From the NCBI RefSeq assembly GCF_036507355.1, contig NZ_AP027877.1: DNA of 64,000 nucleotides; one strand, given 5' to 3'. Position numbers and translations under genes: made by a program. This document shows, in pieces, positions 2,679 through 64,000 of this stretch (position 1 is the first letter of the stretch; each line of letters starts with the position of its first letter). Origin of the DNA: Escherichia coli. GTDB lineage: Bacteria; Pseudomonadota; Gammaproteobacteria; Enterobacterales; Enterobacteriaceae. The notes below the pieces were generated by a model. The model had not been told where the DNA came from. It did not search any database and was given only the letters and a program-made list of their open reading frames with translations.

Positions 2679-3236
2679 TTACTGAATAACCAGCGTATTA
2701 ATGATGTTTTCTGCGGTTGTCTGCGCTTTTTGCTGATCGTCAGCTGGCAGCGTAATTTGCATGGTTAGCAGTTGATTACCCACGTTACCCAGAATAACGG
2801 AAGAGTACGCCGTCTGGCCTTTCGCGGAGATAATACTGTCTAACTGCTGCATTTTGTGACCTTTCAGCTCAATGGCTTTATTGGTTACCACTTGCAGCTG
2901 CGGATCGCGGCTACGTTGCTGATCTTCCAGACGCTTCGCCAGCACCGCCAGATCTTCTTTCGGATCATCGCCCATGATGACGATGACTGCTTTCTGCCCG
3001 GTGGCGTCGGACCAGACATGCATGTTATTGGCCTGCGTTCCCAGCTTACCGCTCTGGTCGGTCATATCCGCTGGCAGCGAGAAACTTAACTTGCCATCAA
3101 GCAGGTTGACGGGATTCCCGGTAGCGTTACTTTCCGCGACCGAACCCTGCGCCGTAGCGTTAGTGTCTTTATCATCACAGGCCGCAAGCCCCATAACCAG
3201 CAGGCCAATTCCGACATATTTAACCAGATTGCGCAT
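2679..3236 (-). CDS. dcrB: Periplasmic lipoprotein DcrB (185 aa)
   Basis: ORF 2679..3290 trimmed to [20 protein letters not shown] (lipobox). Confidence 0.9.
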
Positions 3237-3308
3237 TGACTTCTTCCTTTCGATAAACGGCCATAACGGCTCATTCATCCATCTTATCACAACTCTGATA
3301 ACGAACCT

Positions 3309-3974
3309 TTAACTCGCCTGCAAAGCGTTGATTTCGGATTTATCTGCCAGTCTTTTCAACAGCATATTGAGTAATACGCCATACATTGGCAGGAAGAAAA
3401 CGATACTGATTAACACTTTGAAACAGTAATCGACCAGCGCGATTTCCATCCAGTGTTCAGCCATAAAGGCATCCGGGCTACGCCAGAAGGCAATGAAGAA
3501 AAAGGCCAGCGTGTCGCTGACGTTACCGAACAGTGTGGACGCTGTCGGTGCCAGCCACCAGCGGCGACTCTGACGCAGGCGGTTAAAAACGTGCACGTCG
3601 AGGATCTGCCCCAGCGCGTAGGCCATGAAACTGGCGGTGGCGATACGGGCGACAAACAGGTTGAAGTGGGCGAGTGCGCCGAATCCCTGCCATGAACCCA
3701 TATAGAATAGCGACGAGATGACGTAGGAGATCAGCAACGCCGGGATCATCACCGCAAAGATGATACGACGGGCCAGCGGTGCGCCAAAAATACGCACGGT
3801 CAGGTCGGTAGCGAGAAAGATAAACGGAAAGCTAAACGCGCCCCAGGTGGTATGGAAACCAAAAATGGAGACGGGAAGCTGAACCAGATAGTTACTGGAG
3901 GTGATCACCAGCAGATGAAATAACGATAACCAGAACAACGCCTTATAGCGTTGAGTTTGCGAGAAAACGTTCAT
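3309..3974 (-). CDS. yhhQ: Queuosine precursor transporter YhhQ (221 aa)
   Basis: 221-aa multi-TM ORF in the conserved position. Confidence 0.9.
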   Translation of the reverse strand: MNVFSQTQRYKALFWLSLFHLLVITSSNYLVQLPVSIFGFHTTWGAFSFPFIFLATDLTVRIFGAPLARRIIFAVMIPALLISYVISSLFYMGSWQGFGALAHFNLFVARIATASFMAYALGQILDVHVFNRLRQSRRWWLAPTASTLFGNVSDTLAFFFIAFWRSPDAFMAEHWMEIALVDYCFKVLISIVFFLPMYGVLLNMLLKRLADKSEINALQAS

Positions 3975-13702: not shown

Positions 13703-13919
13703 GGGCCTCTACAATAATCAATTTCCCCTCCGGCAAAACGCCAATCCCCACGCAGATTGTTAATAAACTGTCAAAATAGCTATTCCAATATCATAAAAAT
13801 CGGGTATGTTTTAGCAGAGTATGCTGCTAAAGCACGGGTAGTCATGCATAAAATGAAATAAAGTGCTGAACAACAACATCACAACACACGTAATAACCAG
13901 AAGAATGGGGATTCTCAGG

Positions 13920-15023
13920 ATGAACATAAAGGGTAAAGCGTTACTGGCAGGATGTATCGCGCTGGCATTCAGCAATATGGCTCTGGCAGAAGATATTAAA
14001 GTCGCGGTCGTGGGCGCAATGTCCGGTCCGGTTGCGCAGTACGGTGACCAGGAGTTTACCGGCGCAGAGCAGGCGGTTGCGGATATCAACGCTAAAGGCG
14101 GCATTAAAGGCAACAAACTGCAAATCGTAAAATATGACGATGCCTGTGACCCGAAACAGGCGGTTGCGGTGGCGAACAAAGTCATTAACGACGGCATTAA
14201 ATATGTGATTGGTCACCTCTGTTCTTCATCAACGCAGCCTGCGTCTGACATCTACGAAGACGAAGGCATTTTAATGATCACCCCAGCGGCAACCGCGCCG
14301 GAGCTGACCGCCCGTGGCTATCAGCTGATCCTGCGCACCACCGGCCTGGACTCCGACCAGGGGCCGACGGCGGCGAAATATATTCTTGAGAAAGTGAAAC
14401 CGCAGCGTATTGCTATCGTTCACGACAAACAGCAATACGGCGAAGGTCTGGCGCGAGCGGTGCAGGACGGCCTGAAGAAAGGCAATGCTAACGTGGTGTT
14501 CTTTGATGGTATCACCGCCGGGGAAAAAGATTTCTCAACGCTGGTGGCGCGTCTGAAAAAAGAGAATATCGACTTCGTTTACTACGGCGGTTATCACCCG
14601 GAAATGGGGCAAATCCTGCGTCAGGCACGCGCGGCAGGGCTGAAAACTCAGTTTATGGGGCCGGAAGGTGTGGCTAACGTTTCGCTGTCTAACATTGCGG
14701 GCGAATCAGCGGAAGGGCTGCTGGTGACCAAGCCGAAGAACTACGATCAGGTTCCGGCGAACAAACCAATTGTTGACGCCATCAAAGCGAAAAAACAGGA
14801 CCCAAGCGGCGCATTCGTCTGGACCACCTACGCCGCGCTGCAATCTTTGCAGGCGGGCCTGAATCAGTCTGACGATCCGGCTGAAATCGCCAAATACCTG
14901 AAAGCGAACTCGGTTGATACCGTGATGGGGCCGCTGACGTGGGATGAGAAAGGCGATCTGAAAGGCTTTGAGTTCGGCGTATTTGACTGGCACGCCAACG
15001 GCACGGCGACCGATGCGAAGTAA
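13920..15023 (+). CDS. livJ: Leu/Ile/Val periplasmic binding protein LivJ (367 aa)
   Basis: ORF 13863..15023 trimmed to [18 protein letters not shown] (signal peptide); paralog of the livK product. Confidence 0.95.
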
Positions 15024-15043
15024 CGGATAGATAAATGAAAATG

Positions 15044-15076
15044 CCCGATGCGCTTAACGTCCATCGGGTTTTTTTA
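15044..15076 (+). terminator. Rho-independent terminator after livJ
   Basis: Stem cccgatg...catcggg followed by ttttttt. Confidence 0.75.
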
Positions 15077-15172
15077 TGTTTGTCGAAATGGTTGTAGAAA
15101 GATTAAACAATCCAGGATATGCTTATTGTACGGTGATATGCCGTACATATTATACGGAGCAGGAGAGTTCAC

Positions 15173-15439
15173 ATGTCTGCTGTTAAAAAGCAGCGTATCG
15201 ATCTGCGTTTAACTGACGATGACAAAAGTATGATTGAGGAAGCGGCAGCGATATCTAATCAGTCCGTCAGCCAATTTATGTTGAACAGCGCTTCGCAGCG
15301 GGCTGCGGAAGTGATTGAACAACATCGGCGGGTGATCCTCAATGAGGAATCCTGGACGCGGGTGATGGATGCGCTGAGTAATCCACCGTCACCAGGTGAA
15401 AAGCTAAAACGTGCGGCAAAACGTCTTCAGGGAATGTAA
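15173..15439 (+). CDS. DUF1778-family (RHH) antitoxin, TacA/AtaR-like (88 aa)
   Basis: Small protein, 7 nt upstream of a GNAT gene; SVSQFMLNSASQRAAEVIE resembles DUF1778 antitoxins. Confidence 0.75.
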   Translation: MSAVKKQRIDLRLTDDDKSMIEEAAAISNQSVSQFMLNSASQRAAEVIEQHRRVILNEESWTRVMDALSNPPSPGEKLKRAAKRLQGM

Positions 15440-15445
15440 TAATTT

Positions 15446-15973
15446 ATGGATGATCTGACGATAGAGATTCTGACCGATGATGCAGATTATGATCTACAGC
15501 GATTCGACTGCGGCGAGGAAGCGTTAAATCTCTTTCTGACGACACATCTGGTTCGTCAACATCGCAACAAAATTCTGCGAGCGTATATCCTTTGTCGCAA
15601 CACTCCAGAACGTCAGGTGCTGGGATATTACACATTATCCGGCAGTTGTTTTGAACGAGCCGCATTGCCCTCGAAATCGAAACAGAAAAAAATTCCCTAC
15701 AAAAATATTCCCAGCGTCACTCTTGGGCGTCTGGCAATTGATCATTCAATACAGGGGCAGGGATGGGGAGCAACACTGGTTGCTCATGCCATGAAAGTCG
15801 TCTGGTCAGCCTCTTTAGCGGTAGGTATTCACGGTCTTTTTGTCGAGGCGCTGAATGAAAAAGCCCATACGTTTTATCAGTCGCTGGGCTTTATCCCGTT
15901 AGTCGGGGAAAACGAAAATGCGTTATTTTTCCCAACGAAATCCATTGAACTGCTTTTTACACAGAGCGATTAA
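15446..15973 (+). CDS. GNAT-family acetyltransferase toxin, TacT/AtaT-like (175 aa)
   Basis: GNAT fold motif (QGQGWGATLVAHAM); paired with the upstream DUF1778 gene; 3-prime end overlaps convergent panZ by 4 nt. Confidence 0.75.
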   Translation: MDDLTIEILTDDADYDLQRFDCGEEALNLFLTTHLVRQHRNKILRAYILCRNTPERQVLGYYTLSGSCFERAALPSKSKQKKIPYKNIPSVTLGRLAIDHSIQGQGWGATLVAHAMKVVWSASLAVGIHGLFVEALNEKAHTFYQSLGFIPLVGENENALFFPTKSIELLFTQSD

Positions 15974-16353
15974 CGCTTCTCCCAGCCGCCCTGCTGTGCC
16001 GTAAATCCCAGTGCCTGCATAAACGCCGTCATCACACCGCGATCTTCCACGCCTGCATCCGCCATCCACCAGCATGAAACGCCAGGATTGTTACGCAAAA
16101 CCTCTTCCAGCAGATATTGCCCCACACCGCGACGTCGGGTGACTTCCCGCACGCGCAGGGAATCCAGTGCTCCCTCGGTGCCGCTTAAGGTTACCCGTAC
16201 GGCAGCGAGCAGGCGCTCGTTAAAACGCGCGGCGTAGATACGGTGGTTATCGTCAACCTGTAACGAGGAAGGGGAATACTCCGGCCAGATCTTTTGCAGG
16301 TCAATCCGGTCCTGGTCGCTAAATTTTTCTAATCGAATGATGGTCAGCTTCAT
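15970..16353 (-). CDS. panZ: PanD maturation factor PanZ/PanM (127 aa)
   Basis: MKLTIIRLEKFSDQDRIDLQKIWPEYSP...; GNAT-like. Confidence 0.9.
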   Translation of the reverse strand: MKLTIIRLEKFSDQDRIDLQKIWPEYSPSSLQVDDNHRIYAARFNERLLAAVRVTLSGTEGALDSLRVREVTRRRGVGQYLLEEVLRNNPGVSCWWMADAGVEDRGVMTAFMQALGFTAQQGGWEKR

Positions 16354-16776
16354 GGGTAACCCGTGTAAATCACAAAAGTGGAACCAGTGTAGCGAAATAA
16401 TTTAATCGGAGGCTTTCTCTTTTTTATTTCTTTTGGCAGGTGATTAATTTTTTAACAGCAATAATTACAAAGTTAAAACATTAGAGAATGAAAAATGTCC
16501 AGCATAATCCCCTGAATGATAGTGAATTATTCCGCCCTTTATGCCGTTATTTTATGCTGACAAAGGCACTTTTTTCTGTTTATCTATCAATAAATTCAGA
16601 ATATTATCTGTTCTTAATCGACTGAAAAATAGGGGTTTTAATCGCTATCATCACAAAATACTGCGCTAACCCCTTAATCAGACAGGCAAAAACAGTGCAG
16701 TATAAAAAAAGAACAGTCTGATTTGTTAACACATAAAAACAAAGCAACACAACATCACGAATGGGGATTTTTGACT

Positions 16777-17886
16777 ATGAAACGGAATGCGAAAACTATC
16801 ATCGCAGGGATGATTGCACTGGCAATTTCACACACCGCTATGGCTGACGATATTAAAGTCGCCGTTGTCGGCGCGATGTCCGGCCCGATTGCCCAGTGGG
16901 GCGATATGGAATTTAACGGCGCGCGTCAGGCGATTAAAGACATTAATGCCAAAGGGGGAATTAAGGGCGACAAGCTGGTTGGCGTGGAATATGACGACGC
17001 CTGCGACCCGAAACAAGCCGTTGCGGTCGCCAACAAAATCGTTAATGACGGCATTAAATACGTTATTGGTCATCTGTGTTCTTCTTCTACCCAACCTGCA
17101 TCAGATATCTATGAAGACGAAGGTATCCTGATGATCTCGCCGGGGGCGACCAACCCGGAGCTGACCCAACGCGGTTATCAACACATTATGCGTACTGCCG
17201 GGCTGGACTCTTCCCAGGGGCCTACAGCGGCAAAATACATTCTTGAGACGGTGAAGCCCCAGCGCATCGCCATCATTCACGACAAACAACAGTATGGCGA
17301 AGGGCTGGCACGTTCGGTGCAGGACGGGCTGAAAGCGGCTAACGCCAATGTTGTTTTCTTCGACGGTATTACCGCCGGGGAGAAAGATTTCTCTGCGCTG
17401 ATCGCCCGCCTGAAAAAAGAAAACATCGACTTCGTTTACTACGGCGGTTACTACCCGGAAATGGGGCAGATGCTGCGCCAGGCTCGTTCCGTCGGCCTGA
17501 AAACCCAGTTTATGGGGCCGGAAGGTGTGGGTAATGCGTCGCTGTCGAACATTGCTGGCGAAGCCGCTGAAGGCATGTTGGTCACTATGCCAAAACGCTA
17601 TGACCAGGATCCGGCAAACCAGGGCATCGTTGATGCGCTGAAAGCAGACAAGAAAGATCCGTCCGGGCCTTATGTCTGGATCACCTACGCGGCGGTGCAA
17701 TCTCTGGCAACTGCCCTTGAGCGTACCGGCAGCGATGAGCCGCTGGCGCTGGTGAAAGATTTAAAAGCTAACGGTGCAAACACCGTGATTGGGCCGCTGA
17801 ACTGGGATGAAAAAGGCGATCTTAAGGGATTTGATTTTGGTGTCTTCCAGTGGCACGCCGACGGTTCATCCACGGCAGCCAAGTGA
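16777..17886 (+). CDS. livK: Leucine-specific periplasmic binding protein LivK (369 aa)
   Basis: ORF 16723..17886 trimmed to [18 protein letters not shown]. Confidence 0.95.
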
Positions 17887-17933
17887 AAATCCCACCGCCC
17901 GTGAAATGCGGGCGGGTTTAGAAAGGTTACCTT

Positions 17934-33370: not shown

Positions 33371-33466
33371 GCGATCAGGAAGACCCTCGCGGAGAACCTG
33401 AAAGCACGACATTGCTCACATTGCTTCCAGTATTACTTAGCCAGCCGGGTGCTGGCTTTTTTTTTT
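33371..33466 (+). ncRNA. ryhB: RyhB iron-responsive small RNA
   Basis: gcgatcaggaagaccctcgcggagaacctgaaagcacgacattgctcacattgcttccag...gccagccgggtgctggc plus T-tract terminator, matching my memory of RyhB; in the yhhY-yhhX spacer. Confidence 0.9.
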
Positions 33467-54827: not shown

Positions 54828-54930
54828 GCCTGATGCGGCGTGAATGCCTTCTCAGGCCTACAAAATCATGCAAATTCAATATATTGCATAAACCACGTAG
54901 GCCTGATAAGCGTAGCGCATCAGGCAATTT
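54828..54930. repeat. REP pair downstream of glpD
   Basis: gcctgatgcggcgtgaatgccttctcaggccta and gtaggcctgataagcgtagcgcatcaggca. Confidence 0.7.
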
Positions 54931-60426: not shown

Positions 60427-61653
60427 ATGAATTACGAATTACTGACCACTGAAAATGCCCCGGTAAAAATGTGGACCAAAGGCGTGCCGGTAGAAGCCGA
60501 TGCGCGTCAGCAACTTATTAATACGGCGAAGATGCCGTTTATTTTCAAACATATTGCGGTAATGCCTGATGTACACCTGGGTAAAGGTTCCACCATTGGT
60601 AGCGTGATCCCGACCAAAGGGGCGATTATTCCGGCGGCGGTGGGCGTGGATATCGGTTGTGGAATGAACGCACTACGTACCGCTTTAACGGCGGCAGATC
60701 TGCCTGAAAACCTGGCGGAGCTGCGTCAGGCGATTGAAACGGCCGTGCCGCACGGGCGTACTACCGGACGTTGTAAACGTGATAAAGGCGCATGGGAAAA
60801 CCCGCCTGTTAACGTCGATGCGAAATGGGCTGAGCTGGAGGCCGGTTATCAGTGGTTAACGCAAAAATATCCGCGTTTCCTTAACACTAACAACTATAAA
60901 CACCTGGGAACGCTGGGAACGGGTAACCACTTTATTGAAATCTGCCTTGATGGGTCGGACCAGGTGTGGATTATGCTGCACTCCGGTTCACGCGGAATTG
61001 GTAACGCTATCGGGACTTACTTTATCGATCTGGCGCAAAAAGAGATGCAGGACCAACTTGAGACGTTGCCGTCGCGTGATCTGGCGTACTTTATGGAAGG
61101 TACGGAATACTTTGATGATTACCTAAGAGCCGTGGCCTGGGCGCAGCTTTTCGCCAGCCTTAACCGCGATGCGATGATGGAAAACGTGGTAACGGCGTTG
61201 CAGAGCATTACGCAGAAAACGGTCAGACAGCCACAAACGCTGGCGATGGAAGAGATCAACTGTCACCACAACTATGTGCAAAAAGAACAGCACTTTGGTG
61301 AAGAGATCTATGTGACGCGTAAAGGCGCGGTGTCTGCGCGTGCTGGTCAATATGGAATTATTCCAGGGTCGATGGGAGCGAAAAGCTTTATCGTCCGTGG
61401 GCTGGGAAATGAAGAGTCGTTCTGTTCGTGCAGCCACGGTGCCGGGCGGGTTATGAGCCGTACTAAAGCGAAAAAAATGTTCAGCGTGGAAGATCAAATT
61501 CGTGCCACCGCGCATGTGGAATGCCGTAAAGATGCCGAAGTGATCGACGAAATCCCGATGGCGTATAAAGATATTGATGCGGTGATGGCGGCACAAAGCG
61601 ATCTGGTGGAAGTTATCTATACCCTGCGTCAGGTGGTGTGCGTAAAAGGATAA
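60427..61653 (+). CDS. rtcB: RNA-splicing ligase RtcB (408 aa)
   Basis: 408 aa; conserved metal-binding His and Cys residues. Confidence 0.95.
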   Translation: MNYELLTTENAPVKMWTKGVPVEADARQQLINTAKMPFIFKHIAVMPDVHLGKGSTIGSVIPTKGAIIPAAVGVDIGCGMNALRTALTAADLPENLAELRQAIETAVPHGRTTGRCKRDKGAWENPPVNVDAKWAELEAGYQWLTQKYPRFLNTNNYKHLGTLGTGNHFIEICLDGSDQVWIMLHSGSRGIGNAIGTYFIDLAQKEMQDQLETLPSRDLAYFMEGTEYFDDYLRAVAWAQLFASLNRDAMMENVVTALQSITQKTVRQPQTLAMEEINCHHNYVQKEQHFGEEIYVTRKGAVSARAGQYGIIPGSMGAKSFIVRGLGNEESFCSCSHGAGRVMSRTKAKKMFSVEDQIRATAHVECRKDAEVIDEIPMAYKDIDAVMAAQSDLVEVIYTLRQVVCVKG

Positions 61654-62673
<1,020 letters not shown>

Positions 62674-62715
62674 TATAAAGATGTAAGCCGGATCCAATGC
62701 ATTATCCGGCTAAAC

Positions 62716-64000
<1,285 letters not shown>

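Follow-up and report, generated by a model that had tools for sequence, protein, structure and literature searches.

The window analysed here is a stretch of 64,000 nucleotides (64 kb) of Escherichia coli DNA. Between livJ and the convergent gene panZ (panM), two open reading frames (ORFs) are arranged in tandem on the plus strand, the first encoding an 88-amino-acid ribbon-helix-helix (RHH)/DUF1778 protein and the second a 175-amino-acid GNAT acetyltransferase. A first-pass annotation made from the sequence alone had described this two-ORF layout, and its coordinates, spacer and gene order proved accurate when checked against the ORF list and the sequence. The features of the locus are listed below, with the two genes designated ataR and ataT.

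13863-15023, plus strand: livJ as a mechanical ORF, ending at 15023 (ORF list and sequence)
15024-15969, no strand: variable segment of 946 bp, the whole livJ-panZ intergenic space (alignment, GC)
15035-15077, plus strand: probable intrinsic livJ terminator, hairpin GCCCGAUG...CAUCGGG plus seven U (inverted repeat, RNA fold)
15092-15153, plus strand: predicted ataRT promoter region (sequence; near-invariant over 10 loci)
15095-15123, plus strand: weak sigma-70-like candidate TAGAAA-N17-TATGCT (read from sequence)
15126-15153, plus strand: weak sigma-70-like candidate TTGTAC-N16-TATTAT (read from sequence)
15127-15147, no strand: putative operator palindrome TGTACGG-TGATATG-CCGTACA (inverted repeat, likeness to KacAT)
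15161-15165, plus strand: Shine-Dalgarno sequence AGGAG, 7 nt 5' of the ataR ATG (sequence)
15173-15439, plus strand: ataR, 88-aa RHH/DUF1778 protein, antitoxin and autorepressor (ORF list, ATG start)
15446-15973, plus strand: ataT, 175-aa GNAT toxin, aminoacyl-tRNA acetylation (ORF list, ATG start)
15970-15973, no strand: TTAA common to the ataT and panZ stop codons, tail-to-tail (sequence, RefSeq annotation)
15970-16353, minus strand: panZ/panM, convergent neighbour, 127 aa (ORF list, NCBIfam)

ataR ends with TAA at 15437-15439, and a 6-nt spacer (TAATTT) separates it from the ATG of ataT, which begins at 15446, the 7th base after the stop. The convergent gene was identified as PanM/PanZ with NCBIfam NF033213 (190 bits versus a cut-off of 68). 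It is a core gene outside the ataRT module, found in ataRT-plus and ataRT-minus genomes alike. The paralogues livJ (13863-15023) and livK (16723-17886) flank the module. Their mechanical ORF starts (GTG at 13863 and TTG at 16723) lie upstream of the annotated starts, that of livJ being at 13920 by comparison with RefSeq. Where a short locus includes just the initial ~325 bases of livK, the per-gene blast matched at ~75% instead, presumably to livJ.

Identification of the gene pair

Employing Pfam, we detected TacA1/DUF1778 (PF08681, E = 7.9e-26) over residues 8-86 of the 88-aa protein and GNAT families (PF13508, 4.8e-07; PF00583, 6.2e-06) over residues 92-150 of the 175-aa protein, the domains that the first-pass annotation had named. 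The 88-aa protein is identical to AtaR in PDB 6AJM_C/6GTO/6GTS at 88/88 residues. The 175-aa protein aligned with PDB 6GTS_A from end to end (1-175 with 1-175, E = 3.2e-114) and is identical to the toxin of E. coli O157:H7 at 171 of the 175 residues (97.7%); relative to the O157:H7 genome, C65S, R100H, L102I and K145Q are the only substitutions. The entries matched hold the AtaR-AtaT complex of enterohaemorrhagic E. coli; those for the O157:H7 system as a whole are 6AJM, 6AJN, 6GTO-6GTS and 7CHD. Assignment to the TacAT/AtaRT/KacAT/ItaRT family was correct, and the PDB identity sharpens it: judged by sequence, the pair is AtaR-AtaT itself, beyond mere family membership.

Names in public databases agree with this assignment. 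In NCBI, 56 contigs encode a protein identical to the AtaT of the window and named AtaT, and at least 1000 contigs encode one identical to its AtaR and named AtaR; RefSeq/PGAP names the syntenic genes ataR and ataT in all 30 of the module-covering matches listed (30/30). NCBIfam contains no HMM specific to AtaT or AtaR and gave weak, sub-threshold matches only; the RefSeq names therefore come from another source. Among the PADLOC defence-system models, no family matched AtaR or AtaT at E <= 0.001.

All the sequence-testable defining features of AtaRT were found in the window: an RHH antitoxin gene directly upstream of the toxin gene, G108 and Tyr144, the tRNA-binding surface, the palindrome and the chromosomal position. 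The locus is the well-studied AtaRT system of E. coli, present as a natural allele at the canonical livJ-panZ slot.

Conservation of functional residues

Yashiro et al. (2020) described contacts of AtaT with the tRNA acceptor stem and mutations that lower its toxicity (PMC7595197). From the structure and mutagenesis text of that paper, we picked 18 residues for comparison. F30, H34, R37, R40, N41, R71, S76, K77 and S78 are conserved in the AtaT of the window, and so are K79, K81, K82, P84, Y85, R95, G108, Y144 and K165 (18/18 in total). G108 belongs to the acetyl-CoA site and Y144 is catalytic, while helices alpha1 and alpha3 together with Y85 and R95 form the surface that binds the acceptor stem (PMC7595197). 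In AtaR, R8, D10 and R12 are present, the residues through which the homologue KacA contacts DNA (PMC6698736).

R100H and L102I are located just before the acetyl-CoA motif QGQGWG, and K145Q adjoins the catalytic Y144, so that three of the four differences from the O157:H7 toxin are near the active site. Conceivably, AtaT of this allele is attenuated or altered in substrate specificity, via R100H and L102I in the strand that runs up to the acetyl-CoA-binding motif, or via K145Q. We regard this as unlikely. All four substitutions are seen in other natural alleles, those of E. albertii and E. ruysiae included, and are common polymorphisms: S65 and Q145 are shared with alleles of E. albertii, E. 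ruysiae and numerous E. coli, and H100/I102 with an allele found on 208 contigs. Between the window and O157, ataT shows a dN of 0.010 against a dS of 0.042 with the reading frame intact, and none of the 18 listed residues is changed. The antitoxin, moreover, shows no change at all, contrary to what one would expect beside a harmless toxin. R100H, L102I and K145Q may still change the activity or specificity of AtaT quantitatively.

Since the listed residues and R8, D10 and R12 are intact and the substitutions are natural polymorphisms, we infer that the toxin of this allele is active and the antitoxin competent. Growth arrest by the toxin and its neutralisation by the cognate antitoxin were shown for the O157:H7 allele (PMC7595197); with 98-100% identity, the allele in the window would be expected to do the same, and to N-acetylate aminoacyl-tRNAs.

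Regulatory DNA upstream of ataR

Following the livJ stop codon, there is a hairpin with seven T, which is plausibly the terminator of livJ and lies inside the variable segment. The predicted fold of the RNA from 15024 to 15085 has an energy of -24.5 kcal/mol (z = -4.8), and 0 of 200 shuffled sequences were as stable. The consensus scan for terminators missed the hairpin, whose loop is probably longer than the scan allows. In the promoter consensus scan, no site was found in the module region, both sigma-70-like candidates being below threshold; the position given above for the ataRT promoter is therefore a prediction.

The palindrome at 15127-15147 is composed of two arms of 7 nt each, 100% complementary to each other. 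TGTACGG-N7-CCGTACA occurs once in the 64 kb, where 0.01 occurrences are expected. The same arms, at the same 7-nt spacing, are found in the 27-bp DNA co-crystallised with KacA4KacT2 of Klebsiella, AAATGTACGGTTATTAACCGTACATGA (PMC6698736). The palindrome of kacAT was reported to span the transcription start, and the heterohexamer of AtaRT is stated to bind a palindromic sequence in the ataRT operator (PMC6698736). Of ten loci compared (E. coli, E. albertii and E. whittamii), nine keep the arms unchanged, the exception being E. whittamii with a different outermost base, and the 7-nt spacer reads TGATATG, TGATGTG, TGACATA, TGATATA or TGATATT. Conserved arms with a drifting spacer are the pattern expected of a palindrome bound by protein. 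By analogy with KacAT, and in view of this conservation, we propose that 15127-15147 is the operator for the RHH dimers of AtaR in AtaT-AtaR4-AtaT.

The E. whittamii variant of the operator is CGTACGG-TGATATT-CCGTACA (compared locus 2681-2701), in which the change at the outermost base of the left arm abolishes perfect symmetry. The Shine-Dalgarno-proximal sequence of E. whittamii ataRT also differs.

Distribution of ataRT and the livJ-panZ junctions

The ataRT module was found in 1624 of 5426 complete E. coli genomes (~30%), always once per genome and on the chromosome, with no plasmid copies. A comparison of the livJ-panZ junction across E. coli, which had been proposed as a check, showed the full livJ-ataRT-panM context in 1623/5426 genomes and a K-12 chromosome without the module. 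Among the matches listed, ataRT-free genomes, K-12 MG1655 included, have livJ and panM with a short spacer in between. The adjacency of the two genes in K-12, stated in the first-pass annotation, was confirmed; in MG1655 they are 187 bp apart.

In the alignment with K-12 and AMSCJX03, homology breaks off directly behind the livJ TAA and is regained at CGATTAAC, around the stop codon of panZ. A single slot is filled either by the 946-bp ataRT segment or by the unrelated 187-bp spacer. No target-site duplication was seen in the junction alignment, only the short CGATTAAC at the right junction, and the annotation of the examined stretches around the module includes no integrase or transposase gene. 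The E. albertii type strain and E. whittamii have the module at the same site, collinear with the window.

Several minor features of the slot were noted. The sequence CGATTAAC is common to the right junction of ataRT-plus strains (window 15966-15973) and K-12-type strains (K-12 locus about 1300-1315); it could be chance microhomology, or the scar of a deletion or replacement. Just outside panM, K-12 keeps GAT TAA, which is the last sense codon and stop of ataT. The livJ-panM spacer of K-12 (compared locus 1125-1311) looks REP/BIME-like by eye, for example in GCCGGATGCGGCGTAAACGCCTTATCCGGCCTAC. In AMSCJX03-type strains this spacer is 11 bp longer than in K-12. Strain HH97 (NZ_CP116409.1), the one strain inspected out of 11 genomes in the 80-90% identity band, carries a decayed remnant of ataRT at the livJ-panM site (compared locus 3143-3494), which has retained an intact promoter and operator but shows frameshifts in the 5' half of ataR and an internal deletion; of ataT, only the 3' end is left.

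Origin of the module

The GC content of the module is 0.44-0.49, versus 0.52-0.58 in the flanking genes. The proposal that ataRT is an acquired module is supported, with a qualification: the locus is accessory (1623/5426) and lower in GC, its closest characterised relative, kacAT, is located elsewhere in Klebsiella, and paralogues ~68% identical are common on enterobacterial plasmids and also found in phage records. A recent, strain-specific insertion is at odds with the same site being occupied in E. albertii and E. whittamii and with the HH97 remnant. Because of this shared site and the remnant, it is reasonable to regard ataRT as an accessory locus whose acquisition was old or recurrent within the genus and was followed by losses. 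We also considered whether the module is ancestrally syntenic across Enterobacteriaceae and rejected this, as Klebsiella kacAT adjoins a cusR/sensor-kinase pair and a cupin gene.

We compared divergence in the module (window 15100-15900) with that in its flanks (13900-15000 and 16000-17900). Between the window and E. albertii, the dS values were as follows.

ataR: 0.09
ataT: 0.10
livJ: 0.38
panZ: 0.30
livK: 0.31

The dS of the module is 3-4 times lower than that of the flanking livJ, panZ and livK. Synonymous differences from E. albertii amounted to 17 of 183 sites in ataR and ataT pooled, versus 77 of 259 in livJ (Fisher p = 1.3e-7), and the dip in the 100-bp sliding count coincides with the module. 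The contrast is less marked relative to E. whittamii (ataR 0.118, ataT 0.076; panZ 0.131, livK 0.174 and livJ 0.271). The dip in dS suggests exchange of the module between lineages after their split, and the low value relative to E. albertii could reflect repeated interspecies transfer of ataRT into the same slot; alternatively, the module may be under unusual constraint.

Relation to known systems

The locus resembles AtaR-AtaT of E. coli O157:H7 (EDL933; ECs4308-ECs4307 in Sakai) in its genes, their order, the spacer between them, the livJ-ataR-ataT-panM site and the operator arms. It differs from O157:H7 ataRT in the four AtaT substitutions, in two bases of the operator spacer and in one base just upstream. 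With KacA-KacT of Klebsiella pneumoniae (PDB 5XUN, 5ZGN), it shares the architecture, the half-sites and their spacing, and R8, D10 and R12 of the RHH protein. AtaT of the window matched KacT with E = 3e-74 and AtaR matched KacA with E = 2e-38; the AtaRT and KacAT proteins are about 67-73% identical (PMC6698736). The neighbours are different: kacAT is preceded by cusR and a Cu/Ag sensor kinase gene and followed by a cupin gene, whereas ataRT has livJ and panM.

DUF1778/GNAT pairs of the 'AtaTpl' type, on plasmids and phage-plasmids of E. coli and E. albertii, consist of the same two genes, with a toxin ~68% identical over the full length. These pairs were found on plasmids and in ~108-kb phage records, whereas AtaT proper (>=95% identity) is chromosomal only. 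Paralogues of AtaT at ~68% identity are frequent on enterobacterial plasmids; they also occur in the phage records CP053388.1 and OV696614.1, and one is annotated as 'KacT acetyltransferase-type toxin'. Chromosomal AtaR has been reported to neutralise plasmid AtaT, from which an anti-addiction role was proposed; the plasmid and phage paralogues therefore bear on that proposal.

TacAT of Salmonella, ItaRT of E. coli HS and AtaRT2 of O157:H7 also combine a GNAT toxin with an RHH/DUF1778 antitoxin and act by acetylation of aminoacyl-tRNAs, but they are distant in sequence, differ in tRNA specificity and occupy other loci. AtaT2, for instance, is 29% identical to AtaT (PMC7470980). AtaRT2 (ECs4261-62) was not detectable in the 64-kb window, in which tblastn gave only a chance match at 61795-61884 inside rtcA, and no second GNAT/RHH pair was detectable in the window. 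No relevant paper turned up when the literature was searched for AtaT in combination with livJ.

Proposed mechanism

The best explanation of the locus, with a probability of about 0.95, is a chromosomal type II toxin-antitoxin operon of Escherichia, ataR-ataT, which would be autorepressed by AtaT-AtaR4-AtaT and whose toxin would impose a tRNA-directed block of translation. The mechanistic steps were shown on the O157:H7 allele, which is 98% identical; they are extended to the allele in the window by sequence identity and conservation of the listed residues.

AtaT would dimerise and, as a GNAT acetyltransferase, bind the acceptor stem of aminoacyl-tRNAs, whose acetylation would lead to a block of translation. 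Its reported substrates are the initiator Met-tRNAfMet and also Gly-, Trp-, Tyr- and Phe-tRNAs (PMC7595197). AtaR, with an N-terminal RHH domain and a C-terminal region predicted to wrap AtaT, would keep the toxin monomeric and inactive in the AtaT-AtaR4-AtaT heterohexamer. This complex would bind TGTACGG-N7-CCGTACA in the promoter and repress the operon; surplus toxin would lower the affinity for the operator and release repression. Blocking of AtaT dimerisation by AtaR, repression of the operon by the heterohexamer and reduced operator affinity with excess toxin have been described (PMC8138530, PMC6698736). In the chromosome, the module takes the place of the livJ-panZ spacer, brings along a probable terminator for livJ as well as a predicted promoter and operator, and ends inside the panZ stop codon. 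The role of chromosomal AtaRT is debated, with persistence, anti-addiction, virulence and phage defence under discussion.

Instead of tRNA-directed growth arrest, the main role of AtaT might be acetylation of protein lysines, such as K206 of EspB, with consequences for EHEC virulence. PMC7957018 reports acetylation of this type III secretion protein at K206 by AtaT and higher virulence. As the main role we consider it very unlikely: many E. coli isolated from a variety of hosts carry the module, as do E. albertii and E. whittamii, which may count against it, and specific recognition of the aminoacyl-tRNA acceptor stem is established by structure and biochemistry (PMC7595197). The two activities are compatible and do not exclude each other. 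That the pair is a universal, non-toxic housekeeping acetyltransferase with a small regulator has practically no likelihood, as it is missing from ~70% of complete E. coli genomes (K-12 among them), is decayed in strain HH97 and shares 98-100% identity with proteins of demonstrated toxicity and neutralisation. Both findings that the first-pass annotation had named as contrary to its reading, lack of similarity to GNAT toxins or DUF1778 antitoxins and universal presence, are ruled out by the Pfam and PDB matches and by the ~30% prevalence.

Recognition of the toxin-antitoxin operon ataR-ataT in the window is mainly of value for annotation, AtaRT being among the best-characterised GNAT toxin-antitoxin systems with respect to structures, tRNA targets and regulation. 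The by-products of the analysis, namely the K-12 junctions, the ~30% prevalence, the site shared within Escherichia, the reduced dS, the HH97 remnant and the KacAT-like operator arms, help, to a modest degree, to explain how toxin-antitoxin modules on chromosomes persist and move.

The shared stop codons of ataT and panZ

The overlap of 4 nt between the 3' ends of ataT and panZ, claimed previously, was borne out: TTAA at 15970-15973 contains both stop codons, that of ataT as TAA at 15971-15973 on the plus strand and that of panZ at 15970-15972 (TTA on the plus strand, TAA on the minus strand). RefSeq annotates the same layout in other strains. The further claim that the convergent transcripts necessarily overlap holds for the 4 nt shared by the stop codons; overlap beyond these is reasonable to assume. 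The consensus scan of 14900-16800 gave no terminator-like site on the plus or the minus strand, so that transcription of ataRT plausibly continues antisense into panZ, and that of panZ antisense into ataT.

Every one of the 1623 ataRT-positive complete E. coli genomes has the fused stop codons, as do E. albertii and E. whittamii. The fixed tail-to-tail layout might be functional, convergent transcription or antisense RNA coupling toxin-antitoxin expression to CoA homeostasis; together with the related possibility of repeated interspecies transfer of ataRT into the same slot, we judge this highly improbable. PanZ binds CoA/acetyl-CoA, controlling PanD and so CoA synthesis. Because PanZ binds acetyl-CoA/CoA and AtaT consumes acetyl-CoA, a functional link between the two proteins is conceivable, but the odds are strongly against it.

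At its C-terminus (15970-15975), PanZ reads ...GGWEKR in the window, O157 and AMSCJX03 and ...GGWEKC in K-12 (TTAACGC vs TTAACAC). Variation at this final residue does not follow the presence of ataRT.

Other features of the window

From 60427 to 63957, the translations read as rtcB (60427-61653), rtcA (61654-62673) and a malT-like regulator on the minus strand (62716-63957), with no AtaRT2 module in this interval. Two small RNAs scored above the Rfam gathering score, both on the plus strand: RyhB at 33400-33464 (83 bits) and ES036/CssrF at 54862-54904 (43.6 bits).
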